From Eubacterium sp. (lineage in GTDB: Bacteria > Bacillota > Clostridia > Lachnospirales > Lachnospiraceae): a stretch of DNA of 53,115 nucleotides. A program made the position numbers and the translations under genes. The stretch is from positions 1-53,115 of the forward strand of contig JALEIY010000129.1 of the NCBI GenBank assembly GCA_022769785.1, read 5' to 3'. The notes beneath the pieces are model-generated. The model saw only the letters and a program-made list of their open reading frames with translations. It did not search any database and had not been told where the DNA came from. Shown here one piece after another: positions 7,499 through 20,854 of the stretch; position 1 is the first letter of the stretch; the number at the start of each line of letters is the position of its first letter.

Positions 7499-8011
7499 CT
7501 AAAGTGTTTTTTCCTTTTCAAGCCGAAGCAAATATTCCTTTACGGAAAGGCCACCGCCAAATCCGGTAAGGGAACCGTTCTTTCCCAGGACACGGTGACA
7601 GGGGATAAGAATCAGAAGAGGGTTGTTGTGGCAGGCGCCTCCTACGGCACGGCAGGCTTTTGGATTGCCACATAAAGCGGCGATTTCACTGTAGCTTTTT
7701 GTCCGTCCGTAAGGAATTTGGCAAAGGGCATCCCATACCTTTTGCTGAAATGGAGTGCCTTCCGGACGAAGGGGAAGCTGAAAGCTTTTCCGTTGTCCTT
7801 TAAAATATTCCAGAAGCTGACGGTGGGCTTCGGCGATTAAAACAGTTTCCCGGTAATATTGCATATGTTCTTCCAGAGGAAATGAGTGTTTCTGATAAAG
7901 ATACAGGCCGGTCAGGGCATTTCCGGTTTCTTCAATCCGGATGAGGCCGATGGGAGTATCGTAATGATAATAAAATGGAAGTTCCCGACAGGTTTTTGTA
8001 TTTTCCGACAT
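7499..8011 (-). CDS. ogt: Methylated-DNA--protein-cysteine S-methyltransferase
   Basis: Active-site PCHRV, GTPFQQKVW and RAVGGAC motifs; RBS GAAGGAG before ATG 8011. Confidence 0.95.
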   Translation of the reverse strand: MSENTKTCRELPFYYHYDTPIGLIRIEETGNALTGLYLYQKHSFPLEEHMQYYRETVLIAEAHRQLLEYFKGQRKSFQLPLRPEGTPFQQKVWDALCQIPYGRTKSYSEIAALCGNPKACRAVGGACHNNPLLILIPCHRVLGKNGSLTGFGGGLSVKEYLLRLEKEKTL

Positions 8012-8107
8012 GGCAATTTCTCCTTCCGTTAGATTTGTTTTCATAAGCATAGCATAAAAGGAAGAAAATCGAAAGTTCATCCGGGCAGCAGTACATTTTG
8101 TCAGGAT

Positions 8108-8140
8108 TTGATTGTGGGGAAACTGTTTTTATGATATGAT
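8108..8140 (+). promoter_or_regulatory. Putative sigma-A promoter of the nifH-like/hyp operon
   Basis: Either TTGATT-16-TATGAT (8130-8135) or TTGTGG-17-TATGAT (8135-8140) with an extended TG. Confidence 0.5.
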
Positions 8141-8340
8141 AATGGCAACATATTTTTCTCCCTTTTTTGGGGGATTCATGTAGTCTGTCTGACCGGAAGA
8201 AGACAGTTCTGACCGGAAAGACGTAAGAGACAAAAGAATGAGAAGCATAATTGCGGCTCTGACGGCAAGGTTTGACCAAGCGGGAATAGCTGTGCAAGGC
8301 AGGATATATGGATTCATGTATGCTGCAAGGGGGATAGTGT

Positions 8341-8396
8341 CTCCTTTATTTCACAGTGCCCGGTGTCGGAGTGTTATGAGATAAAGGAGTTTTTTT
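8341..8396 (+). terminator. Attenuator-like hairpin plus U-tract that also sequesters the nifH-like RBS
   Basis: CTCCTTTATTTCA (8341-8353) pairs with TGAGATAAAGGAG (8377-8389). T7 follows, then the ATG at 8397. Confidence 0.75.
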
Positions 8397-9161
8397 ATGT
8401 TAAAAATCGCAATTTACGGAAAAGGCGGTATCGGGAAATCAACTGTCACTGCCAATCTGGCAGCGGCTTTTGCTAGCTTGGGTAAAAAAGTCATACAGAT
8501 TGGCTGTGATCCGAAAGCAGACTCTACCATTAATCTGCTTGGGGGAGAAACACCGATTCCCGTGATGAACTATTTAAGAGAATATGATGAGGCCCCGGAG
8601 ACCATAGAGGAGATTTCCAAAATCGGCTATGGCGGGGTGCTCTGTATTGAGACCGGAGGGCCGACACCGGGTCTTGGATGCGCCGGAAGAGGAATTATTG
8701 CTACCTTCCAGCTTCTGGAGGATATGGAACTTTTTGAGACAAGGAATCCGGATGTTGTGCTTTATGATGTGCTGGGGGATGTGGTTTGCGGCGGATTTGC
8801 TGCTCCGATTCGGGAAGGATATGCCAGTCAGGTTCTTATTGTGACCTCCGGGGAGAAGATGGCTCTTTATGCGGCGGATAATATTAATAAAGCAGTGAAG
8901 AATTTTGAGGACCGAAGCTATGCAAGAGTATACGGCATCGTTTTAAACCATAGAAATGTTGACCGGGAAAGGGAAAAGGTCGAGCAGTTTGCTCACAGTG
9001 CAGGACTCCCCATTGTAGGAGAGATACCGCGAAGTGATGAGATTACCTGTTACGAAGACAGGGGAATGACTGTCGTAGAAGGGAATCCCGATTCGGAGGT
9101 CAGCCGTGCATTTTTGTCTCTGGCAGAAGAATTGCTGACATTGGAGGAGGAAAAAGAATGA
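8397..9161 (+). CDS. Nitrogenase iron protein-like ATP-dependent reductase (NifH/FrxC/CfbC family), copy 1
   Basis: [23 protein letters not shown] (Cys97 equivalent) and DVVCGGF (Cys132 equivalent). Confidence 0.96.
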
Positions 9162-10483
9162 CAGACTGCATAAACAGGAAAGAAGCATTTTCCCTGACCG
9201 CAGAGGAACTGGTGAAGAAAGGAAAAGAAGGGATTCCGGAGGAGATGATTACCGGAAAGCATCTGATTTACAGTTCTCCGGCTACGCTTGCCTACAATTC
9301 ACCGGGGGCTCAGGGCTTTGGGGTAAAAAGAGCCGGTCTGGCGATTCCGGGGTCTGTCATGCTGTTGGTAGCTCCGGGATGCTGTGGAAGGAATACTACG
9401 ATATTAAGTGAGCTGGGTGGATACAGTGACCGTTTTTTCTACCTGCTCATGGATGAGACGGATATTGTTACCGGGAGACATTTAAAAAAGATTCCACAGG
9501 CGGTAGAGGAGATATACGATTCTCTGGATGAGAAACCATCGGTGGTGATGATTTGTATAACCTGCGTGGACGCGCTTCTCGGGACGGATATGGAAAGAAT
9601 CTGCCGAAAAGCGGAGGAAAAAGCCGGGATTCCGGTTTTGCCATGCTATATGTATGCCCTGACAAGGGAGGGAAGGAAGCCGCCTATGGTTCATGTGCGG
9701 CAGTCCATTTATTCATTGCTGCGCCCAAGAAAGAAAAAAAGCACTTCTGTGAACCTGCTTGGATATTTTGCACCACTGATTGAGGATTGTGAGCTTTATG
9801 TGTTGCTAAGACAGATTGGAATTAAAACTGTCCGGGAAATATCCCGATGTGCATCATTTGAGGAATACCTGGATATGGCAGAGGCAAACTTTAATCTTGT
9901 GCTTCATCCGGAAGCACGGTATGCGGCTGCCGATATCAGAAAGCGGCTGGGGATTCCATCCATTGAGCTGCGGCGGCTTTATCAGATTGATAAAATCAGG
10001 AATCAGTATGCTCTTTTTGCTGCAGCACTCGGATATGAGATGGATGACAGTGTTTATTATAAAGAGACAGAAGATGCCATTGCAGCATTCCGGGAGCGAT
10101 ATCCTTCAGTTACTTTTGCCATCGGTGAGGGATGTAATGCCAATGCATTTGAGCTGTCGCTGGCACTTCTGCGTTATGGGTTTGCTGTCTCGGAGATTTT
10201 TGCCTCTGTCGGTGAAGAAGATTTTATTTATCTGGAGAAAATCGCTGCACTGAGTCCGCATACGAGGGTTTATTCTAATCTGGAGCCGACGATGCTTTAT
10301 TATGACTGTCAGGAGTGTCCTGCAGATATTACCATCGGAAAGGATGCGGCTTATTATCATCCGGATGCGGTTCACCTTGAGTGGAGTGATGATATACAGC
10401 CTTTCGGATATGCGGGGGTCAGACATTTTTTCACAGAATGTGAAAAAGTCTTACGGTCTGCTGCCGGAAAGGGGGATGAATGA
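9158..10483 (+). CDS. Nitrogenase component-1-like protein, D/E/BchN-type subunit, copy 1
   Basis: [33 protein letters not shown] and ANFNLVL match the nitrogenase oxidoreductase fold. ATGA-coupled to nifH-like. Confidence 0.88.
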
Positions 10484-11544
10484 TGAAAGGACTGAGAAAA
10501 TTTATTGCACCTTTTGCTCCGGACCAGTCCGGTGCGGCAGCGGTGTTTTGTGAACTGGGAGGACTTGTGATTATCCTGGATGCCGGCGGATGTGCGGGGA
10601 ATATCTGTGGTTTTGATGAACCACGGTGGTTTACCAGCCGAAGTGCAATCTTCAGTGCCGGGCTTCGGGATATGGATGCGATTCTGGGAAGAGATGACAG
10701 GCTGGTTGAAAAGATTTCCAAAGCCTGTAAAAAGGTAAACGGACATTTTGTGGCAGTGATTGGCACGCCGGTTCCGGCGGTCATCGGAACAGATTATCGG
10801 GCACTGGCAAGGATGATTGAAAAAAAGACCGGTCTTCCTGCGGTTGCCATTGACACCAACGGTATGGAGCTTTATGACACAGGAGTGCAAAAAGCACAGA
10901 AGGTATTGTTTGAAGTTTTTACCGGGGAAGAAAAAGAGGGACAGAGCCGGGAGGAAAAACGTCTGGGTATTCTTGGAGCAACACCGATGGATTTTTCCGG
11001 CGATATGGATAAGCTGACGGCATATTACCGCGAAAAAGGCTGGGATAAAATTACCTGTTATGGTATGGGGGCAGGACTTGCGGAAGTAAAATCAGCTTCC
11101 TGCGAAGGGAAAAATATCGTCATTGCTCCTGCCGGTCTGGCGGCCGCACGTTATCTTGAAAAGAAATATGGCATCCCTTATGAAACGGATTATCCGGTGG
11201 AAATTTTATCGGAATGGAAAGAAATTTGTGACTGTATGCCGCAGTGGAAAGGGAAAAAGATATTGATTGTCCATCAGCAGATTCTTGCCAATGCACTTCG
11301 GGATAAACTGGAAAAGATACCGGGAACCATGGTGGATGTAGCCTCATGGTTTATGATGGAAAAACAATGGAAAAGAGAACAGGATGTGCATTTAAAGGAA
11401 GAAGAGCAGTGGAATGAACTGGTAAAAGAGCGGGAGTATGACGTCGTAATAGGCGACAGTCTGTTTCAGAGAGGACTTTCGGGATTTGCCGGTCAGTATG
11501 TGAAACTGCCGCATTTTGCAGTTTCCGGAAAGAGGAGCGAATGA
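10480..11544 (+). CDS. Nitrogenase component-1-like protein, K/N/BchB-type subunit, copy 1
   Basis: DAGGCAG, LRDMDAILG, GTPVPAVIGTD, GILGATP and AARYLEKKYGIPY motifs; ATGA-coupled. Confidence 0.87.
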   Translation: MMKGLRKFIAPFAPDQSGAAAVFCELGGLVIILDAGGCAGNICGFDEPRWFTSRSAIFSAGLRDMDAILGRDDRLVEKISKACKKVNGHFVAVIGTPVPAVIGTDYRALARMIEKKTGLPAVAIDTNGMELYDTGVQKAQKVLFEVFTGEEKEGQSREEKRLGILGATPMDFSGDMDKLTAYYREKGWDKITCYGMGAGLAEVKSASCEGKNIVIAPAGLAAARYLEKKYGIPYETDYPVEILSEWKEICDCMPQWKGKKILIVHQQILANALRDKLEKIPGTMVDVASWFMMEKQWKREQDVHLKEEEQWNELVKEREYDVVIGDSLFQRGLSGFAGQYVKLPHFAVSGKRSE

Positions 11545-13925
11545 AAAAAAGTAAAACGGTTCGAATCCGTGTATTTGGAATAGTACAGGGAGTAGGATTC
11601 CGTCCGACCGTAAGCCGTCATGCAGTGGCATCCCACATTAAAGGGAGCGTCTGCAATAAAGGCTCCTTTGTGGAGATATGGGCACAGGGAACCAAAGAAG
11701 ATATTGATGTTTTTTGCAGGAAGATTCAGAAGGAACCTCCGCAAAGAGCGGTGATCATGAAGATTTCGATTGAGGAAAGGCAGACGGGATTTACGGATTT
11801 TACGGATTTTTCTATTATAGAAAGTGAAAAAAAGAGGGGAGATATTTTTGTTTCTCCGGACATTGGAATCTGCCCCCAGTGTAAAAAAGAACTATATGAC
11901 CGGAATGACCGGAGATACCTGCATCCCTTTATTAATTGTACCTGCTGCGGGCCGAGACTGACGATTCTTGATGCCATGCCTTATGACAGGGAAAGAACCA
12001 GTATGGCCGAGTTTCCGATGTGTCCTTCCTGTGAATGGGAATATACCCACGCAGAAACGAGACGATTTGATGCACAGCCGGTCTGCTGCAATGAATGCGG
12101 ACCTGAGGTATATGTGATTGGAAAAAATATCAGGGGGCCGGAAGCACTCCGTTACGTTCGAAAACTTCTTCGGGATGGAGGGATTGCAGCCATCAAGGGA
12201 ATTGGCGGTTTTCATCTTTGCTGTGATGCCCTTAATGAAAAGACCGTTGCAAGACTGCGGAAAAGCAAAGGGCGCCCGGCAAAGCCTTTTGCGGTAATGA
12301 TGAAAGATATGGATACCGTGAGAAGGGAATGTGAATGCGACGAAGTGAGGCAGGAGCTTCTGGAAGGGTACCAGAAACCGATTCTGCTTCTGGAAAAAAA
12401 GGAGGGGGGAAGGCTTTCCTCTCTGGTTGCACCGGGTAACCCAAAGGTTGGAGTGATGCTTCCTTATGCGCCCCTTCATCATCTTTTATTTGATTACTGT
12501 GATGATACGTCAGTTTCAGATTGTCTGGTTATGACCAGTGCCAATAATTCCGGAGCACCGATTTGCCGGGACGACGAAGATGCAATAGCGGAACTTGGCG
12601 GACTTTGCGATGTAATATTATCCCATAATCGCCTGATTCGCCTTCGGGCGGATGATACAGTGATGGACTTTTTCAGAGACAGGCCGTATATGATTCGACG
12701 TTCCCGAGGATATGCACCGCTTCCGTTTGCGTTGGAGAGAGAATGGAAAGGGGAAGTTTTGGCCATGGGAGGTGAACTGAAAAACACCTTCTGTGTTGGC
12801 AAAAACAGTTTGTTTTATCCCTCTCCTTATATCGGAGACATGAGTGATGTCCGGACGGTTAAGGCACTCGATGAATCGGTGAAGCGGATGACAGGGCTTC
12901 TTGAAGCAAAGCCGGAGGTGGTGGCCTGCGACCTGCATCCGGCATATAATACCTCTGCGCTGGCAGAAAGTATGGGACTTCCTATGATGAAGATTCAGCA
13001 TCATTATGCGCATATTTTATCCTGTATGGCGGAAAACGAATACCCTGGTCCGGTTATTGGTGTTTCCTTTGACGGAACCGGATATGGTACGGATCAAACA
13101 ATATGGGGCGGTGAGTTTCTGGTGTCGGATTATGATGGGTTTTCCCGGGAAGCTTCCGTGCAGTCATTTGTGCAGGTGGGAGGAGATCTGGCGGCAAAAG
13201 AGGGCTGGAGAGTGGCGGTTTCTCTCCTGAAGGCAGTTTATGGAGAAGAAGAAACGCTTCAACTTTCTGAGAAATGGGAACTGTGTACCAGACAGGAGGC
13301 CAGTGTATTATGTAAAATGGCGGACAGAGGAATAAACAGTATCGTTTCTACCAGTGCCGGTCGGCTTTTTGATGCAGTCAGTGCGCTCCTTGGAATTTGC
13401 CGTTTTTCCACTTTTGAGGGAGAGGCTTCAATATCCCTGCAATTTGCGGCACAGGCTTTTGAGAAAAAAGTGTTCCGCAGTGGCGAAGGGAATTTGGGAA
13501 TGCCGGAGGACTGGGATGAAAAAATGCTTTTGACGATTTCTGAAAAAGAAGAAGCAGAACAAAGAAGCTTCTTTCTGAATACTACCGGGCTGTTTTCGTG
13601 GATTGCAGAGCAGAAAAAACAGGGAAAGGCAAGCGAAGAATTAAGCTATGCTTTTCACCGTATTCTGGCTGAGATGATTGTGCAGGGCTGTATCCGTATC
13701 AGAGAAGAGACCAGGATTACGACAGCGGCATTAAGCGGTGGAGTGTTTCAGAATACACTGCTGCTTCGATTATGTGTGAACCGACTGGAAGAAGAGAATT
13801 TTCATATTCTGATACACCACCTGATTCCGCCGAATGACGGAGGAATCTGTCTTGGTCAGGCAGTGGCCGCCATGAATCAATTGCAAAAGAAATATAAGAA
13901 AGAGGGAGAAAATAAATGTGTGTAG
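11541..13925 (+). CDS. hypF: Carbamoyltransferase HypF
   Basis: Acylphosphatase GIVQGVGFRP, two Zn-fingers (CPQC..CTCCGPR; CPSC..CNECGP), KGIGGFHL, QHHYAH, DGTGYG and PPNDGG motifs. Confidence 0.98.
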   Translation: MKKSKTVRIRVFGIVQGVGFRPTVSRHAVASHIKGSVCNKGSFVEIWAQGTKEDIDVFCRKIQKEPPQRAVIMKISIEERQTGFTDFTDFSIIESEKKRGDIFVSPDIGICPQCKKELYDRNDRRYLHPFINCTCCGPRLTILDAMPYDRERTSMAEFPMCPSCEWEYTHAETRRFDAQPVCCNECGPEVYVIGKNIRGPEALRYVRKLLRDGGIAAIKGIGGFHLCCDALNEKTVARLRKSKGRPAKPFAVMMKDMDTVRRECECDEVRQELLEGYQKPILLLEKKEGGRLSSLVAPGNPKVGVMLPYAPLHHLLFDYCDDTSVSDCLVMTSANNSGAPICRDDEDAIAELGGLCDVILSHNRLIRLRADDTVMDFFRDRPYMIRRSRGYAPLPFALEREWKGEVLAMGGELKNTFCVGKNSLFYPSPYIGDMSDVRTVKALDESVKRMTGLLEAKPEVVACDLHPAYNTSALAESMGLPMMKIQHHYAHILSCMAENEYPGPVIGVSFDGTGYGTDQTIWGGEFLVSDYDGFSREASVQSFVQVGGDLAAKEGWRVAVSLLKAVYGEEETLQLSEKWELCTRQEASVLCKMADRGINSIVSTSAGRLFDAVSALLGICRFSTFEGEASISLQFAAQAFEKKVFRSGEGNLGMPEDWDEKMLLTISEKEEAEQRSFFLNTTGLFSWIAEQKKQGKASEELSYAFHRILAEMIVQGCIRIREETRITTAALSGGVFQNTLLLRLCVNRLEEENFHILIHHLIPPNDGGICLGQAVAAMNQLQKKYKKEGENKCV

Positions 13926-14116
13926 GTTTACCAGCAAGAATTGTGACGATGAAAGACGGGATGGCTGTTGTGGATGCTTCCGGCGCGAAAAGAGAGATAT
14001 CCACAGAGCTGATTGAGAATCTGGAGCCGGGAGACTATGTAATGGTTCATGCCGGTATTGCAATCGCCAAAATACAGGAGGAAGAAACAGAAGAAGAGCT
14101 GGAGGAGAAACCATGA
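13916..14116 (+). CDS. hypC: Hydrogenase maturation chaperone HypC
   Basis: N-terminal MCVGLP (Cys2) and GDYVMVHAG. Confidence 0.97.
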   Translation: MCVGLPARIVTMKDGMAVVDASGAKREISTELIENLEPGDYVMVHAGIAIAKIQEEETEEELEEKP

Positions 14117-15168
14117 AGAAAAATATGGAAGAGTTAAAGAACCGTATCATGGCTTATGAAGGACCTCCGGTTCGCATTATGGAGGTCTGCGGGACTCATA
14201 CTCATGAGATTTTTCGCCTCGGAATCCGGAAATTGCTTCCAAAGCAGGTAGAATTGATATCCGGACCCGGCTGTCCGGTCTGTGTCACCCCGGCGGATTA
14301 TATTGATGAAGCTATATGGCTGGCATTAGAGAAAAAGATAACGATTTGTACCTTTGGAGATTTGGTTCGTGTGCCGGGAACTGAGAAAAGTCTTTCAGAT
14401 GCCCGGGCAGAAGGGGCAAAAATACAGATTGTCTATTCCCCAACCGATGCTGCAGATTATGCGAAGAAACATCAGGATGAAGAAGTTGTCTTCTTATCGG
14501 TAGGGTTTGAGACGACAACACCGGCTGCCTGCATTTCATTGAAAATGGCAGAAAAAGAAGGTCTGAAAAATTATTCATTGCTGACGGCGAATAAAACTAT
14601 GCCACAGGCTTATGAAGCACTGAAAGGAAGTGCAGATGTATTCCTTTATCCGGGGCATGTAAATGCGATTACCGGCACGGCTCTTTGTGAAGAACTGGTT
14701 GAAAAGGGAATCAGCGGTGTTGTGGCAGGCTTTGAGGCAGAAGATCTTCTGGAAGCTTTTGCGGTGATTTTAGACCGGTATCCTAAAGGAGAACCTTTTT
14801 TTGTCAATGCATATAAAAGAGTTGTGACAAAAGAAGGAAGCGTACCGGCTGCAAAGCTGGTGGCACAGTGGATGGAAGCCTGTGACAGCGAGTGGAGAGG
14901 ACTTGGAGTCATAAAGGGTTCAGGGCTCAGAATATGTCATCATCCATCGATGTTTGACGCGAGAATAAAATACCAGATTCCAAAGCCGGAAGCAAAGAGC
15001 AACCCGGTCTGCCGCTGCGGAGAGGTGCTGCAGGGGAAATGTCGACCGACGGATTGTCCTGTTTTTGGAACAGCCTGTACACCGCTTCATCCGGTCGGAG
15101 CCTGTATGGTATCGGGAGAAGGAGCCTGTTCAGCATATTATCAATACGGAGGAGAAATCAATGACTGA
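14113..15168 (+). CDS. hypD: Hydrogenase maturation scaffold HypD
   Basis: CGTHTH, GPGCPVC, GFETT, PGHV and C-terminal Fe-S Cys motif CRC..CPVFGTAC..GACMVSGEGAC. Confidence 0.98.
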   Translation: MKKNMEELKNRIMAYEGPPVRIMEVCGTHTHEIFRLGIRKLLPKQVELISGPGCPVCVTPADYIDEAIWLALEKKITICTFGDLVRVPGTEKSLSDARAEGAKIQIVYSPTDAADYAKKHQDEEVVFLSVGFETTTPAACISLKMAEKEGLKNYSLLTANKTMPQAYEALKGSADVFLYPGHVNAITGTALCEELVEKGISGVVAGFEAEDLLEAFAVILDRYPKGEPFFVNAYKRVVTKEGSVPAAKLVAQWMEACDSEWRGLGVIKGSGLRICHHPSMFDARIKYQIPKPEAKSNPVCRCGEVLQGKCRPTDCPVFGTACTPLHPVGACMVSGEGACSAYYQYGGEIND

Positions 15169-16165
15169 GACAGTAACATTGGCACACGGAGCGGGAGGAC
15201 AGCAGACCTCCGAGCTGATTGAACATATTTTTAAGAAACATTTTGAAAATCCGGAGCTGACCGGAGATGATGCGGCTGTTTTGCAGATGGAAGCGGGAAG
15301 ACTTGCCTTTACTACGGATGGTTTTATTGTTTCACCAGCGGAGTTTCCGGGAGGAAATATCGGCAAGCTCAGTATTTGCGGAACGGTAAATGATTTGGCC
15401 TGTATGGGTGCAAAGCCTCTGTATCTCACCTGTGCTTTTGTAATTGAAGAAGGATTTCCGATGGATAAGCTGGAGAAGATTGCACAGTCCATGGAGATTA
15501 CTGCGAAAGAAGCCGGGGTCAGAATTGTGGCAGGAGATACAAAGGTTGCCGGAAAAGGGCAGGTAGACGGAGTATTTATTACGACAACAGGCATAGGCCG
15601 TATTGAGGATGGAGTGTCAACCTCCGGGAAAAATGCCAGACCGGGAGATGTAGTTATCGTCAGCGGAGACGTGGGAAGACATGGATGTACTATTCTCATG
15701 GAAAGAGAAGATTTTGGAATAGAGGCAGAGGTTACCAGTGATTGTGCCCCTCTTTGGGGAACGGTGGAAGCACTTCTTGGTGTGACAAAGGATATTCATG
15801 TGATTCGTGATGCCACAAGGGGCGGTGTGGGAACCGTACTTTATGAGATTGCCGGACAGAGCGGAGTAGGCATCCGGCTAAACAGTGAGGCTATTCCGGT
15901 GCAGGACAATGTAAAAGGAATTTGTGGAATGCTTGGTCTGGAACCGTTGTATCTTGCCTGTGAAGGACGACTGGTGATTGTGGCACCGAAGGAAAAAGCG
16001 GATGACATAATAAAGACACTCCGTACAGGCAAATATTCTGCTGAGGCGGCAGTCATCGGTGAAATTACGGAAGAGATGGCAGGAAGAGTGACAATGGTAA
16101 CCGAAATCGGAGCCCAGACTCTGCTTCCGCAACCGAGAGGAGAACTTTTGCCGAGAATCTGCTGA
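15161..16165 (+). CDS. hypE: Carbamoyl dehydratase HypE
   Basis: HGAGG, GTVNDL, GDTKV and RDATRGG motifs; C-terminal PRIC; RBS GGAGG. Confidence 0.98.
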   Translation: MTETVTLAHGAGGQQTSELIEHIFKKHFENPELTGDDAAVLQMEAGRLAFTTDGFIVSPAEFPGGNIGKLSICGTVNDLACMGAKPLYLTCAFVIEEGFPMDKLEKIAQSMEITAKEAGVRIVAGDTKVAGKGQVDGVFITTTGIGRIEDGVSTSGKNARPGDVVIVSGDVGRHGCTILMEREDFGIEAEVTSDCAPLWGTVEALLGVTKDIHVIRDATRGGVGTVLYEIAGQSGVGIRLNSEAIPVQDNVKGICGMLGLEPLYLACEGRLVIVAPKEKADDIIKTLRTGKYSAEAAVIGEITEEMAGRVTMVTEIGAQTLLPQPRGELLPRIC

Positions 16166-16250
16166 GAACCGGTGGATTTACAGATTTACGACTGAAAAAA
16201 CGAATCTTATCATAACAAAAATATGTGTTGAGATTCGGGGAGGAACTGCT

Positions 16251-16496
16251 ATGGAGACAAGAATTGCCGTTCTATCCATTATTGTGGAGGATAAGGAGCA
16301 GACGGCGCAGTTAAATGATATGATTCATGAATATTCGGAATATGTGGTAGGAAGAATGGGTATTCCCTATCGGGAAAAAGGTATCAGCATTATCAGCCTG
16401 GTGATGGACGCTCCACAAAATGTCATCAGTACACTTTCCGGTCGAATTGGCCGTCTCAGGGGAGTGACATCAAGGGCAACTTACGCAAAGGTTTAA
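16251..16496 (+). CDS. TM1266-family small ACT-like protein ('iron-only hydrogenase system regulator')
   Basis: 81 aa with RIAVLSIIVED..LN..HEY..VGRMGIPYREKG..IISL..LSGRIGRL; RBS GGGGAGG. Confidence 0.85.
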   Translation: METRIAVLSIIVEDKEQTAQLNDMIHEYSEYVVGRMGIPYREKGISIISLVMDAPQNVISTLSGRIGRLRGVTSRATYAKV

Positions 16497-16515
16497 AAAT
16501 GACAGGAGGCGGAAC

Positions 16516-17295
16516 ATGATAAAAATTGCAGTGTACGGAAAAGGAGGAATCGGAAAATCCACTACGGTTTCCAATGTGGCGGCAGCCATGGCACAGCAGG
16601 GGCTTAAGGTAATGCAGATTGGATGCGATCCCAAAGCCGATTCCACTGTACTCCTTCGTCATGGAAATCCAATCAGCACGGTGCTTGATTTAGTTCGAAC
16701 CAGACGAAATGATTTTACCCTTGAGGATATGGTTACGGAAGGGTTTGCCGGGGTGCTTTGTGTTGAGGCGGGCGGACCGGCTCCGGGAATGGGCTGTGCC
16801 GGGCGGGGAATCATTGCGGCTCTGGAGAAATTAAAGGAAAAAGGCGCATATGATGTTTATCGTCCGGATGTCATAATCTATGATGTTTTAGGGGATGTGG
16901 TTTGTGGAGGATTTTCCATGCCAATGAGAGGAGGATATGCCGACAGCGTATTTGTGTTGACTTCCGGAGAAAATATGGCCATTTATGCGGCGGCAAATAT
17001 TGCCACAGCGGTAAATAATTTTAGCGGCCGGGGATACGCAAAGCTGGGAGGGCTGATATTAAACCGTAAAAATGTAAAACGGGAAGAAGAGAAGGTACAG
17101 GAACTGGCAGAAGATATTCACAGTGAAGTTATTTCCCGACTTTCTTACAGTACACTGGTTACGGACGCGGAAGAACGTAAAATGACGGTTATGGAAGCGT
17201 GGCCGGACAGTGAAATGGCGATGGAATACCGCAGTCTTGCAGAAAAGATTCTTTCTGTATGCAGCCGGGATATCGGAGGTGACGACCATGCTTGA
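16516..17295 (+). CDS. Nitrogenase iron protein-like reductase, copy 2
   Basis: [23 protein letters not shown] and DVVCGGF; RBS AGGAGG. Confidence 0.96.
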   Translation: MIKIAVYGKGGIGKSTTVSNVAAAMAQQGLKVMQIGCDPKADSTVLLRHGNPISTVLDLVRTRRNDFTLEDMVTEGFAGVLCVEAGGPAPGMGCAGRGIIAALEKLKEKGAYDVYRPDVIIYDVLGDVVCGGFSMPMRGGYADSVFVLTSGENMAIYAAANIATAVNNFSGRGYAKLGGLILNRKNVKREEEKVQELAEDIHSEVISRLSYSTLVTDAEERKMTVMEAWPDSEMAMEYRSLAEKILSVCSRDIGGDDHA

Positions 17296-18622
17296 GCTGC
17301 TTCATGGAAGTTCTCCGGTACAGTGTGAAAATGAAAGAATACGGATGGGAGATGCAGCGTGGCCTGCACCTTTTCTTCCGGGTCTGGAATATAACAGTCC
17401 CGCTCACGGCACCTGGAATATTGTGCACACAGGTATGCTGATACCGGATTCCCATCAGATTTATGTGTGTGCAGCAAACTGCAACAGAGGAGTTATCCTT
17501 ACGGCAGCGGAAATGAATGCGGTGGATCGTTTTTCTTCCATTGTGATACAGGAAGAGAATCTGATTAATGGGGATATGGAAGAACTGGTCATAGAAGGAG
17601 TGACAGAGATTCTTCTGAAATTAGAGAGAAAGCCATCGGTAGTTCTTCTGTTTACAGTATGTATCCATCATTTTATGGGGTGCGATTTGGGGTATATATA
17701 CAGTACTCTCAGGGAAAGATTCCCAGGTCAGTGCTTTGTGGATTGTTATATGGATCCGATTATGCAAAAAGGAGGAATGACACCGGATGAAAAACTTCGG
17801 ATACGTCTATATGCTCCTCTTGTGAAAAGAAAGAAAAATCGTAGGCAGATTAATATCATTGGGAATGACCTCCCGACCGACCCGGATAGTGATATCCTTG
17901 CTTTTATAAAAGAATCCGGATATGAAGTAAAAGATATTACATCCTGTAATGACTTTGAAGAATATCTTTCCATGGCAGAAAGCTTTTTGAATATTACCAG
18001 TTATCCTTCAGCTAAAAAGGGGGGAGATATTTTATCGAAGCGACTGGAAATGGAACATCTTTATATGCCTCAGTCTTTTTCTTATGAAGAGTTGGACGCT
18101 CAGTTTTTCCGGTTAGCGGATATTCTTGGAACGAATCCCCCGGAAACAGCCCAATTAAAAAAGAAATGTGAGATGTCTTTGGAAAAAGCAAAAGAACAGA
18201 TAGGGGATACCAGGATATCAATTGATGCATCGGCAGTTCCGAGAATTTTAGGACTGACCAGACTTCTTCTTTCCCATGGCTTTCGGGTGTTTCGAATATA
18301 CACGGACGGTTTTTCTCCGGAAGAAGAAGGCGATTATCACTGGCTGCGTGAACATTATCCGGATTTGGAGGTGTGCGCGACAATTCATCCCGGAATGAGG
18401 ATATTTCCACGGAAATCCCAAGAAAAGATTCTTGCAATAGGACAAAAAGCAGCCTATTTCAGCCAGACACCTTATTTTGTAAATATGGTGGAGGGGGGAG
18501 GTCTATTTGGATATTCCGCGATTTGTCGTCTGGCGGAGCGGATGTGTGAGGCCTTTTTTGAGGAAAAAGATACAAAAGATTTGATAGTACGAAAGGGATT
18601 GGGGTGTGAGAGCTGTATATGA
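17288..18622 (+). CDS. Nitrogenase component-1-like protein, D/E/BchN-type subunit, copy 2
   Basis: YNSP, VCAANCNRG, IQEENLING, TVCIHHFMGCD and INIIGN motifs. ATG 17288 follows GGAGG and overlaps the nifH-like stop. Confidence 0.88.
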   Translation: MLELLHGSSPVQCENERIRMGDAAWPAPFLPGLEYNSPAHGTWNIVHTGMLIPDSHQIYVCAANCNRGVILTAAEMNAVDRFSSIVIQEENLINGDMEELVIEGVTEILLKLERKPSVVLLFTVCIHHFMGCDLGYIYSTLRERFPGQCFVDCYMDPIMQKGGMTPDEKLRIRLYAPLVKRKKNRRQINIIGNDLPTDPDSDILAFIKESGYEVKDITSCNDFEEYLSMAESFLNITSYPSAKKGGDILSKRLEMEHLYMPQSFSYEELDAQFFRLADILGTNPPETAQLKKKCEMSLEKAKEQIGDTRISIDASAVPRILGLTRLLLSHGFRVFRIYTDGFSPEEEGDYHWLREHYPDLEVCATIHPGMRIFPRKSQEKILAIGQKAAYFSQTPYFVNMVEGGGLFGYSAICRLAERMCEAFFEEKDTKDLIVRKGLGCESCI

Positions 18623-19803
18623 AGCAGGTATCCGTAAGAATTTCCACATACACGGCAGATGTATCCGGTGTGTGTTCGGCTCTTTATGAGTTGGGGGGAA
18701 TGGTAGTGATTCACGACCCTTCCGGATGTAATTCAACCTATAATACACACGATGAGCCAAGATGGTATGAACAGGACAGTCTGGTGTTTATTTCCGGATT
18801 ATCGGAGATGGATGCCATCATGGGAGATGATGAAAAACTGATTCGGGATATAGTCCGTGCGGTGAAACAATTTGCTCCGCGTTTTATTGCACTTGTGCGT
18901 ACACCGGTGCCGCTGATGATAGGAACGGATTTTGAGGCAATCAGTAAAATAATTGAACAGGAAACCGGGATTCCGGTATTTTATTTTGGAACAACCGGAA
19001 TGCGTTCCTATGTAAAAGGGGTGGAAGAAGCACTTGCTGTTGTGGCGAAACATATGGTAAAGGATGCCAGCCGGTGCATTCCGGAAAAAAAACGGGTGAA
19101 TCTGCTGGGGGTAACCCCTCTGGATTTTTCGGTAAATAAAACGATGGAATCGGTAAAACAATATTTGTGGCAAAACGGATGGGAAATCGTGAGTTGTTTT
19201 GCAATGGGAAGCAGCACAGAAGAACTGTCCGATGCAGGAAATGTCTGTGTGAATCTGGTGCTGTCCGCTTCCGGTCTTGCTGCGGCACGGGTTTTAAAGC
19301 AGCGTTTTGGAATTCCATATGTGGTCGGTTTGCCTTCCGGGGACTTTGGGAAAAAAGTCCTTGATGATTTAAACAAAAGTGCTGCCGATGGAAAAGACCG
19401 GGTGTCGTATTTTTCCTCGGAAGAAATAAACCCGGGAAAAAGAGAGGATGAGAATAGAAAGGTATATTTTATAGGAGAAACGGTGATTTCGAGGTCATTG
19501 GCGGAAACTATGAACATCCGTGAAAAAAGGGAAATTAAGGTGATTTGCCCGTTGGAAACAGACGGAGAACTTCTGGATGAAAAATGTGTTGTAAAATCCG
19601 GTGAAGAAGAGATGAAAGAAGAATTAATGCAGGCGGCAGTCGTCATAGCAGACCCCATGTACCGGCCGATTTGCCCACCGGAATGTCAGTTTATCTCTCT
19701 TCCTCATGAAGCTTTTTCCGGAAGAATTTACCGCAGACAGATTCCGGATTTGACAGAACTGTCCTTTTTATATAGGGAACAGAAAAATTCAGAAAGTTTC
19801 TGA
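18619..19803 (+). CDS. Nitrogenase component-1-like protein, K/N/BchB-type subunit, copy 2
   Basis: HDPSGC, LSEMDAIMGDD, TPVPLMIGTD, VNLLGVTP and FGIPY motifs; ATGA-coupled. Confidence 0.88.
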   Translation: MKQVSVRISTYTADVSGVCSALYELGGMVVIHDPSGCNSTYNTHDEPRWYEQDSLVFISGLSEMDAIMGDDEKLIRDIVRAVKQFAPRFIALVRTPVPLMIGTDFEAISKIIEQETGIPVFYFGTTGMRSYVKGVEEALAVVAKHMVKDASRCIPEKKRVNLLGVTPLDFSVNKTMESVKQYLWQNGWEIVSCFAMGSSTEELSDAGNVCVNLVLSASGLAAARVLKQRFGIPYVVGLPSGDFGKKVLDDLNKSAADGKDRVSYFSSEEINPGKREDENRKVYFIGETVISRSLAETMNIREKREIKVICPLETDGELLDEKCVVKSGEEEMKEELMQAAVVIADPMYRPICPPECQFISLPHEAFSGRIYRRQIPDLTELSFLYREQKNSESF

Positions 19804-19804
19804 A

Positions 19805-20854
19805 ATGAGGAAAGCAATGAATATTATAGAACAATTTATAAATCATCCGGATATGAGCCTCATGGAATATGAGCTTCTTGTGGAACAGGCAGGGAATCCG
19901 GAAGCAGTGAAAAGGCTTCAGGAAGAGGCACTTCGTATCAGAAGGCAATATTATGGTGATAAGGTATATATCAGAGGCTTGATTGAGTTCACAAATTATT
20001 GTAAAAATAACTGTTATTATTGTGGTATCCGAAGAGATAACAAATCTCTTCAGCGCTATCGCCTGACAAAAGAGCAGATTATGGAATGCTGTCAGAATGG
20101 ATATGACTTAGGGTTTCGCACCTTTGTCTTTCAGGGCGGGGAAGACCCATGGTTTACAGAAGACAGAATGGTTTCTCTGGTTCGTTCTGTTCATGAGGCA
20201 TGGCCGGATTGTGCCATTACCCTTTCTGTGGGAGAACTGCCAAAGGAAACCTATCGGGCATTAAAAAAAGCAGGAGCGGACCGATATCTGCTTCGGCATG
20301 AGACTGCCGATAAATCTCATTACGAAAGTCTCCATCCGGAAGGGATGAGCTTTTCAAACCGGATGCAATGCCTTCAGAATCTCAGGGCACTGGGCTATCA
20401 GGTCGGAGCCGGATTTATGGTAGGTTCACCGGGACAAAATAAGTTCCATCTTGCAAAGGAACTGTATTTTCTCAGTCACTTTAAGCCGGATATGGTTGGC
20501 ATAGGGCCTTTTATTCCACACCATAAGACAAGGTATAAAGAGGAACCGGCCGGGGCGGTCTCCATGACCCTGTTTTTATTATCTGTGATTCGTATTTTAC
20601 TTCCCAAAGTATTGCTGCCGGCGACAACGGCATTGGGGACTATAGACCCATACGGCAGAGAAAAGGGGTTATTGGCGGGAGCAAATGTCATAATGCCCAA
20701 TTTATCACCGGAAAAATACAGGAAAAACTATGCTCTCTATGATAACAAAATCTGTATGGGAGAAGAGGCAGCAAAATGTATTCGATGTCTGGAAAAAAGA
20801 GTGGCATCTGTTGGAGCACAGATTGTTGTTGACCGGGGTGACGTATGTAAATAA
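19805..20854 (+). CDS. hydE: HydE-family radical SAM protein ([FeFe]-hydrogenase maturase-like)
   Basis: RGLIEFTNYCKNNCYYC (CX3CX2C), RYLLRHET, GIGPFIPH, LPATTAL, GANVIMPN, YALY and C-terminal CX7CX2C. Confidence 0.88.
   Translation: MRKAMNIIEQFINHPDMSLMEYELLVEQAGNPEAVKRLQEEALRIRRQYYGDKVYIRGLIEFTNYCKNNCYYCGIRRDNKSLQRYRLTKEQIMECCQNGYDLGFRTFVFQGGEDPWFTEDRMVSLVRSVHEAWPDCAITLSVGELPKETYRALKKAGADRYLLRHETADKSHYESLHPEGMSFSNRMQCLQNLRALGYQVGAGFMVGSPGQNKFHLAKELYFLSHFKPDMVGIGPFIPHHKTRYKEEPAGAVSMTLFLLSVIRILLPKVLLPATTALGTIDPYGREKGLLAGANVIMPNLSPEKYRKNYALYDNKICMGEEAAKCIRCLEKRVASVGAQIVVDRGDVCK

Follow-up and report, generated by a model that had tools for sequence, protein, structure and literature searches.

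The operon and its genomic setting

The window analysed here is the whole of a 53,115-nucleotide stretch from a Eubacterium sp. of the Lachnospiraceae. It contains an operon (8397-20854) in which two sets of nitrogenase-like genes are combined with hydrogenase maturation genes in the order nifHDK-like, hypF, hypC, hypD, hypE, TM1266, a second nifHDK-like set and hydE, with no hypAB. The genes are the following:

8397..9161, + strand: NifH-like protein 1 (Fer4_NifH; below the nifH and CfbC cut-offs)
9158..10483, + strand: NifD/E-like protein 1, nflD1 (Oxidored_nitro)
10480..11544, + strand: NifK/N-like protein 1 (Oxidored_nitro)
11541..13925, + strand: HypF carbamoyltransferase (TIGR00143, over cut-off)
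13916..14116, + strand: HypC (PF01455)
14113..15168, + strand: HypD (TIGR00075, over cut-off)
15065..16165, + strand: HypE (TIGR02124, over cut-off, matched from residue 37; the true start is probably about 100 nt further in)
16251..16496, + strand: TM1266-family protein of 81 aa, candidate hairpin reader (TIGR03959, PF21699; fold of PDB 2nzc and of the NikR C-terminal domain)
16516..19803, + strand: second NifH/D/K-like set, by profile matches (16516-17295, 17210-18622 and 18619-19803)
19805..20854, + strand: HydE radical-SAM maturase (TIGR03956, 548.6 bits, cut-off 254.6)

The nif-like proteins do not class as a true nitrogenase or CfbCD, since all of them fall below the NCBIfam cut-offs for nifH, nifD, nifK, CfbC and CfbD. 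A divergent gene for an ogt-like methylated-DNA-protein-cysteine methyltransferase (7499-8080, - strand) is not kept beside the operon in relatives and is ordinary.

The genome that carries the window is 89.7% complete and encodes HydF, HydE and two Fe_hyd_lg_C proteins; searches of it gave no HydG over cut-off and neither a NiFe large subunit nor HypA. In a sample of 301 genomes of the order, HydG is present in none of the 11 with nflD1, against 157 of the 290 others. Within the genus, 35 of the 36 genomes have an nflD1 match (two via a distant paralogue only), and the sole genome without one, G011, is also the sole one with HydG; its hydG locus has no hairpin match of the kind described below. 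HydF occurs in 34 of these 36 genomes. Three further nflD1 carriers at the class level have HydF and no HydG, and hydF lies directly downstream of the operon in G121 and G529. As described in the accessible text of PMC9431212, HypCDEF build Fe(CN)2CO and HydG makes the Fe(CO)2CN unit for HydE and HydF. Since both routes yield CO/CN-iron units, replacement of HydG by the operon is chemically sensible. The distribution of the two suggests, by a small balance, that the operon does replace HydG, providing the H-cluster's CO/CN-iron unit in a different way. A NiFe-type large subunit is present in 8 of the 36 genus genomes, where the Hyp proteins may therefore have a second use. The nflH2D2K2 set stands alone in the HydG-bearing genome G515 (L302) and in G156 (L303), which has hydE nearby and no HydG, so the two nfl sets may have separate jobs.

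The hairpins and the terminator of the leader

The region ahead of the first nifH-like gene contains these features:

8108..8140, + strand: promoter candidate, TTGATT-16-TATGAT (8108-8135) or TTGTGG-17-TGnTATGAT (8112-8140), from a consensus scan, the second form by eye
8157..8174, + strand: local hairpin at the leader start, in minimum-energy folds
8185..8222, + strand: hairpin A (distal), with UGA-CCG-GAA on both strands, two tandem G·A modules and a fold of -13.5 kcal/mol
8254..8292, + strand: hairpin B (proximal, the conserved core), 39 nt, made of P1 (8254-8258/8288-8292), U-A and tandem G·A, a 4-position stem, a 2x2 purine loop, GG/CC and a variable loop
8256..8267, + strand: 5' strand of hairpin B, the predicted 5' strand of an antiterminator (-16.8 kcal/mol as a duplex, with p=0.02 in comparisons to shuffles and to 93 terminators of the same genome)
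8327..8334, + strand: purine run of an earlier note on this DNA; with 8340-8347 it gives, in this species only, a helper helix of the predicted ON fold
8341..8396, + strand: terminator-like hairpin with U7, holding the antiterminator 3' strand (8357-8360, 8365-8372) and the Shine-Dalgarno sequence (8384-8389), from folding and shuffles

The putative promoter, a consensus match only, would place the start of the leader near 8142-8147; the same kind of match occurs five times in 1.6 kb, where 2.2 are expected. None of 200 shuffles folds as well as the leader as a whole (z -3.8). None of the covariance models of Rfam 15, which include SAM, TPP, FMN, Moco, T-box, cobalamin, NiCo and PyrR, matches at its gathering score in the window, and a search of 8000-8500 to E=10 returns just two chance matches. 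The earlier note, whose positions are all correct on re-reading the sequence, had likewise been unable to assign the upstream part of the leader to SAM-I, TPP, FMN, Moco, T-box, cobalamin or NiCo, and Rfam bears it out.

Both hairpins have the same design. The motif YGA-N4-RAR on both strands of hairpin B creates two tandem G·A modules about a pseudo-twofold axis, and hairpin A is the cleaner form of this design. In alignment A1, which comprises 105 hairpin B sequences and is the basis for the pair counts and for covariance model R1, 86% of the pairs are standard, against 26-46% in slid registers; the sequences were chosen by a pattern that fixes many positions, and their genomes are kin rather than independent. 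Double changes are found at 10 of the 12 pairs (for example AU 71, GC 21 and GU 9; CG 102 and UA 2; GC 103 and AU 2). Two pairs are weak, one of them the middle pair of the stem, and are standard in 33 and 41 of the 105 sequences, respectively. The loop varies base by base between 4 and 9 nt. The earlier note had named a lack of structural conservation in homologues as a refutation of its reading; a structured element is kept among them, and its pairs covary. By itself hairpin B folds weakly (z -1.4). A distal copy of the hairpin A type is recognised by pattern in 6 of 108 homologous leaders. A kink-turn is defined by a three-nucleotide bulge beside tandem G·A pairs. The element is not a kink-turn or box C/D motif, because in alignments A1 and A3 the tandem G·A pairs have U-A and C-G as their immediate neighbours, with no such bulge.

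The distribution of hairpin B follows the operon. In the genome collection, a search pattern for the element has 120 matches of an estimated 170 or so, and 95 of the 120 precede genes of this operon. The flanking CT..AG, which lies outside the search pattern, is present in 96 matches. In 92 of these the first gene downstream is an operon gene (88 nifH-like, 2 hypC, 1 TM1266 and 1 hydE), and the remaining 4 have no operon gene within the 71-300 nt of downstream DNA available. Three further matches with altered flanks precede nifH-like genes, and two of them preserve the flanking pair by a double change. The 21 matches with no operon gene downstream look like chance. The pattern-match loci are labelled mostly Lachnospiraceae, Oscillospiraceae and Saccharofermentans. 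When loci are anchored on the gene instead, the element is present in all 26 of the same-genus loci with upstream DNA (22 by a first scan, 3 by closer scans and 1 by eye), from a set of 30 in which it is truncated by a contig end in L007 and diverged in L030. Among metagenome loci, 23 of 24 distinct upstream regions contain it, two nifH2 rows being excluded. The closest named nifH-like proteins are from Anaerobutyricum records, with 86-89% identity. In the genome that carries the window, model R1 has a single match, at 8251-8295.

The terminator lies immediately before the coding region. The hairpin at 8341-8389 has a folding energy of -21.8 kcal/mol (z -5.4, with 0 of 200 shuffles as good); T7 follows at 8390-8396 and the ATG at 8397, and AAGGAG (8384-8389) is inside the 3' arm. 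The 13-bp stem (8341-8353/8377-8389) that the earlier note had seen burying this Shine-Dalgarno sequence ahead of T7 is indeed present, with one G-U pair, as the base of a longer hairpin. Between the element and the ATG, which are 62-350 nt apart in homologous leaders, a terminator (-8 kcal/mol or better, with a U run) is predicted in 102 of 115 distinct leaders.

The pairing that would compete with this terminator is a different one from that proposed before. The earlier note had paired the purine run AAGGGGGA (8327-8334) with TCTCCTTT (8340-8347); this helix can form (-7.8 kcal/mol), but as a conserved antiterminator it is rejected, as only 3 of 102 leaders show pairing above 95% of shuffles between the 26 nt ahead of the terminator and its 5' arm (p=0.06 in the window). 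An AGGGG within 30 nt upstream of the terminator is found in 4 of the 102. The complementarity that the note had also seen between AAGGGGGA and TCTCCCTT (8157-8164) gives a duplex of -10.5 kcal/mol and is not a conserved switch, since TCTCCCTT is taken up by local folding: in minimum-energy folds it pairs with 8169-8174, in a hairpin of which none was seen by eye in homologous leaders. What the note had missed are the conserved hairpins at 8185-8222 and 8254-8292 and the long-range pairing 8256-8263/8365-8372. The latter, together with 8264-8267/8357-8360, forms the predicted antiterminator of the window, in which the 5' strand of hairpin B would pair with the terminator interior.

In 52 of 102 leaders a hairpin strand pairs with the terminator interior above 95% of shuffles, 44 by the 5' strand and 8 by the 3' strand, where about 5 of each are expected; against the 93 own-genome terminators instead of shuffles the numbers are 34 and 6. 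The other 50 leaders have no significant antiterminator. Whether the 5' or the 3' strand is used, the logic is the same: when the hairpin is kept, the terminator forms and the genes are off. Folding energies in the window fit this order of events. With hairpin B kept, the fold with the AAGGGGGA helix reaches -45.5 kcal/mol and that with the terminator -50.2. For the fragment ending at 8376, the ON fold, including the AAGGGGGA helix, is better than the fold with hairpin B kept by 5.3 kcal/mol, and with the full terminator present, the fold of hairpin B plus terminator leads by 4 kcal/mol. Along the growing RNA of 100 leaders, the pair probability of P1 is 0.91, then 0.64 before the terminator, 0.09 just before its closure and 0.56 after it. 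This probability is 0.11, against 0.39 with the terminator part shuffled, in 63 leaders; in the window alone, 7 of 8 shuffled terminator parts likewise opened hairpin B. In RNA run X6 the leader is matched at high identity with the variant T8372C, which strengthens both the ON and the OFF fold and so does not discriminate between them; the contigs of runs X1, X2 and X4, from small shares of each run, leave the hairpins uncovered. Some Blautia-labelled loci (L031, L040, L047 and others) have a terminator loop that repeats the hairpin 5' strand CUGACGG and could trade places with it; the duplex test is not significant there. Judged from sequence and predicted folds, this uncatalogued leader RNA very probably works as an OFF attenuator.

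The hairpin family and the TM1266 protein

Across Clostridia, related hairpins and terminators are seen in regions upstream of TM1266 genes. A class-wide scan of 151 genomes with model R1 gave 3 matches, so the model is too narrow. It matches the leaders of TM1266-hydG operons (L153, with 31.6 bits, L179 and L187). Hand-made descriptors found 19 of 60 and 30 of 60 loci when tuned and the latter version 6 of 40 held-out loci, and are therefore overfitted. A second covariance model, R2, was built from 20 hairpins at 18 other TM1266 loci, with no nfl operon included. In this training family double changes occur at 7 of 9 pairs, with a covariation of 0.58 against 0.18. The best R2 match in the 53-kb window is hairpin A (24.2 bits, E 0.002); hairpin B is not matched at E<=5. 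Rfam on 20 TM1266 loci finds one tRNA and nothing else.

At scores of at least 18 bits, R2 matches 43 of 100 TM1266 loci. Among loci outside the training set it matches 24 of 52 in which TM1266 is next to hydE, hydF or hydG, against 2 of 31 in which TM1266 has other neighbours; 28 of 69 TM1266-hyd loci have no match of at least 18 bits. All 55 of the 55 matches at this level are on the sense strand, one of them, inside hydG, probably being false. Fourteen R2 matches end 2-14 nt ahead of the hydG start codon, over or against the ribosome site. At L202:1420-1456, L212:1733-1770, L267:312-348 and 11 more, the hairpin sits at the hydG Shine-Dalgarno sequence without a terminator, and from this position the bare hairpin is likely a translational operator. 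The earlier note had suggested that the ligand or binding protein of the element could reveal the operon's substrate. This was right in spirit, as the hairpin ties the nitrogenase-like operon to [FeFe]-hydrogenase maturation.

Several variants of these loci were observed. At L175 the hairpin upstream of TM1266 seems by eye to hold a loop insertion of about 70 nt with both halves intact. At L186:940-1464 and 1833-1912, L169, L248, L257 and L210:356-1450, TM1266 paralogues, some with a hairpin leader, head an ECF S-component gene (PF12822 in L186) or, in L210, a gene for an NMT1-like binding protein. At L177, L178 and L182, TM1266 is followed by what we take, from its N-terminus, to be a dapF-like gene, and the leader hairpin is absent.

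Gene and hairpin are also linked in their losses. TM1266 is present in all 11 nflD1 genomes of the order sample and in all 33 metagenome loci that span hypE to nflD2. Among hydG loci from genomes scored as TM1266-negative, R2 matches 1 of 27, and the genome of that one has a broken TM1266; the TM1266-positive and TM1266-negative sets differ in length and anchor. In the first 20 of the negative loci, most have, by eye, a promoter-like stretch near the ATG. In G366 (L292/L293, G366:C14:30528-30751), TM1266 is split in two with a stop and the hairpin still stands ahead of hydG. One genome, G079 (100% complete), has the operon without TM1266, and none was found elsewhere in it (best E 0.04); at its locus L301 (G079:C4:56000-74000) the nfl-hyp operon is complete but for TM1266, which is deleted between hypE and nifH2. 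Its leader has a weak hairpin-like element (R1 11.7 bits, R2 14.5 bits) and a terminator.

The TM1266 protein has TM-scores of 0.93 to 2nzc and 0.80-0.88 to NikR domains. It is not itself a NikR, because its 81 aa match the C-terminal domain only and the N-terminal ribbon-helix-helix DNA-binding domain is lacking. In 101 sequences, R4, R35, K43, K65 and K75 are 96-100% Lys or Arg, P39-Y40 is also kept, one His is conserved at 85% and there is no conserved Cys. The net charge is near zero. From the distribution of gene and hairpin, TM1266 is probably the protein that reads the leader RNA.

A proposed mechanism, its rivals and known systems

On the sense strand, the sequence ahead of nifH-like gene 1 contains hairpin A, hairpin B and the terminator, in that order. 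With no ligand, by the time the polymerase passes about 8372, the terminator interior (8357-8372) would pair with 8256-8267, the 5' strand of hairpin B, and in this species 8327-8334/8340-8347 would help; the terminator could then not close, the Shine-Dalgarno sequence would be free and the operon is predicted to be ON. TM1266, a stand-alone oligomer of the NikR-C-terminal/ACT fold with invariant basic residues and no DNA-binding domain, may bind the pseudo-twofold YGA-N3/4-RAR hairpin. Hairpin B would then stay shut and the terminator would form, turning the operon OFF, and in any read-through RNA the ribosome site would be buried. The signal might be an excess of TM1266, perhaps carrying a pathway product such as an Fe-CO/CN unit or a [2Fe] precursor. 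Such feedback, in which the operon's own TM1266 binds the hairpins and switches the operon off, is the reading we consider probable.

A riboswitch, in which hairpin B binds a small molecule or metal (for example Fe2+, an Fe-CO/CN unit, SAM or an amino acid) that favours the terminator, is unlikely, even though its OFF-type expression platform would be the same, nucleotide conservation is high within the nfl subfamily and G079 retains a hairpin-like leader without TM1266. Across Clostridia, the conservation shrinks to CUGA/RAAG and the second G·A module of an unbranched symmetric hairpin; the hairpin is mostly lost along with TM1266, is used bare at the hydG ribosome site and has no Rfam match. 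A short pseudo-symmetric hairpin, its association with the TM1266 gene and its solo use at ribosome sites make an operator read by a protein likelier than a riboswitch. The earlier note's reading is supported as regards a conserved cis-acting RNA with a terminator/antiterminator layout and no Rfam match; the antiterminator that it chose is the wrong one, and a small-molecule riboswitch is the less likely form of its proposal.

The same attenuator could be read by another protein, such as HydF, HydE, the apo-hydrogenase or a general binder of G·A helices, with TM1266 riding along or serving as an adaptor. The G079 leader again speaks for this, as do the near-zero net charge of TM1266 and its fold, which is that of a ligand-binding regulatory domain. 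We regard it as quite improbable: HydF is present in G079 and HydG in the TM1266-negative hydG genomes, yet the hairpin is missing from 26 of 27 hydG loci of the latter, and at L186 it precedes TM1266 and an ECF S-component gene, where no hyd gene comes next.

It is very improbable that the element acts as DNA, as a direct repeat (TGA-N-GAA twice) to which a transcription factor binds, with a terminator that merely damps read-through. Hairpin A does contain TCTGACCGGAA twice, 20 nt apart, at 8188 and 8208, and TM1266 is annotated as a putative regulator, but the halves covary as base pairs across a loop of changing length, strong matches are strand-specific and TM1266 has no DNA-binding domain. 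Leader-peptide attenuation via the 48-codon ORF at 8238-8384, which overlaps hairpin B and the terminator, is hardly credible, given the variable distance from hairpin to ATG and the single-base variation of the loop.

If TM1266 feedback holds, it gives a structural-genomics orphan a testable function and would show, as a first case in Clostridia, control of [FeFe]-hydrogenase maturation at the RNA level. The mutual exclusion of operon and hydG marks a candidate HydG-free pathway to the H-cluster and points to how hydrogen-producing Clostridia with HydE and HydF and no HydG make it; a nitrogenase-like/Hyp route, if true, would be new metallocluster chemistry, useful for hydrogenase production. 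A wider synthesis is rather doubtful: TM1266 might be a NikR-derived RNA-binding sensor of an H-cluster precursor that shuts maturation genes via a symmetric tandem-G·A operator, and the operon a second, HydG-free pathway of common gut bacteria, where the CO/CN-iron unit for the [FeFe]-hydrogenase cofactor would be made by Hyp proteins of the NiFe type together with two nitrogenase-like reductases.

Parts of this picture touch on published observations. In Coprococcus catus and other gut Firmicutes, according to the accessible text of PMC3464626, hydrogenase maturation genes are accompanied by two linked NifHEN-like sets, with a proposed role in assembly of an active-site metallocluster; this accessible text names no leader RNA, TM1266 or exclusion of HydG, and 'hyde' does not occur in the main text. 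Acetogens without HydG and with orphan HypCDEF are noted and left unexplained in the accessible text of PMC9431212. In that of PMC8457756, TM1266 is listed among the Rex regulon and called a putative regulator. Candidate RNAs HMP2_12891, HMP2_1424 and HMP2_15789, which are in the accessible tables of PMC8040213 as unannotated, 42-44 nt long and no more than 5 kb from hydG, with TM1266 also near one of them, may, judged by their table rows, belong to the window's hairpin family; these rows give no function or structure, and no row there has hypF or Oxidored_nitro. The main texts of PMC5737381, PMC2965389, PMC11109978 and PMC8632094 contain no hydrogenase motif, although the supplements of PMC5737381 and PMC11109978 may hold it, and the readable supplements of PMC8632094 and PMC6429828 have no match. 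A literature search, with large supplements outside its range, found no description of the hairpin RNA or of a HydG-free route.

Protein-dependent attenuators of Firmicutes include PyrR on the pyr leader, ribosomal-protein leaders, HutP and TRAP. As for the proposed reader, TM1266 shares its fold with the NikR C-terminal domain and with the TM1266 protein of PDB 2nzc, but its family lacks the ribbon-helix-helix domain and a conserved Cys and has invariant Arg, Lys and Tyr residues instead, and it is not known as an RNA-binding protein. The leader resembles OFF-type transcriptional riboswitches in having a conserved structured element followed by an intrinsic terminator with mutually exclusive pairing; it differs from them in that there is no complex aptamer, the conservation resides in two G·A modules and the element is tied to a protein gene. 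The proposed model is similar to the PyrR, ribosomal-protein, HutP and TRAP systems: an operon-encoded protein binds a hairpin of the leader, the hairpin serves as an anti-antiterminator, and such a site can also be used at the ribosome site. The window's RNA has no Rfam match, and what sets it apart from the leaders of PyrR, HutP and TRAP is a hairpin built as a pseudo-twofold double tandem-G·A helix.
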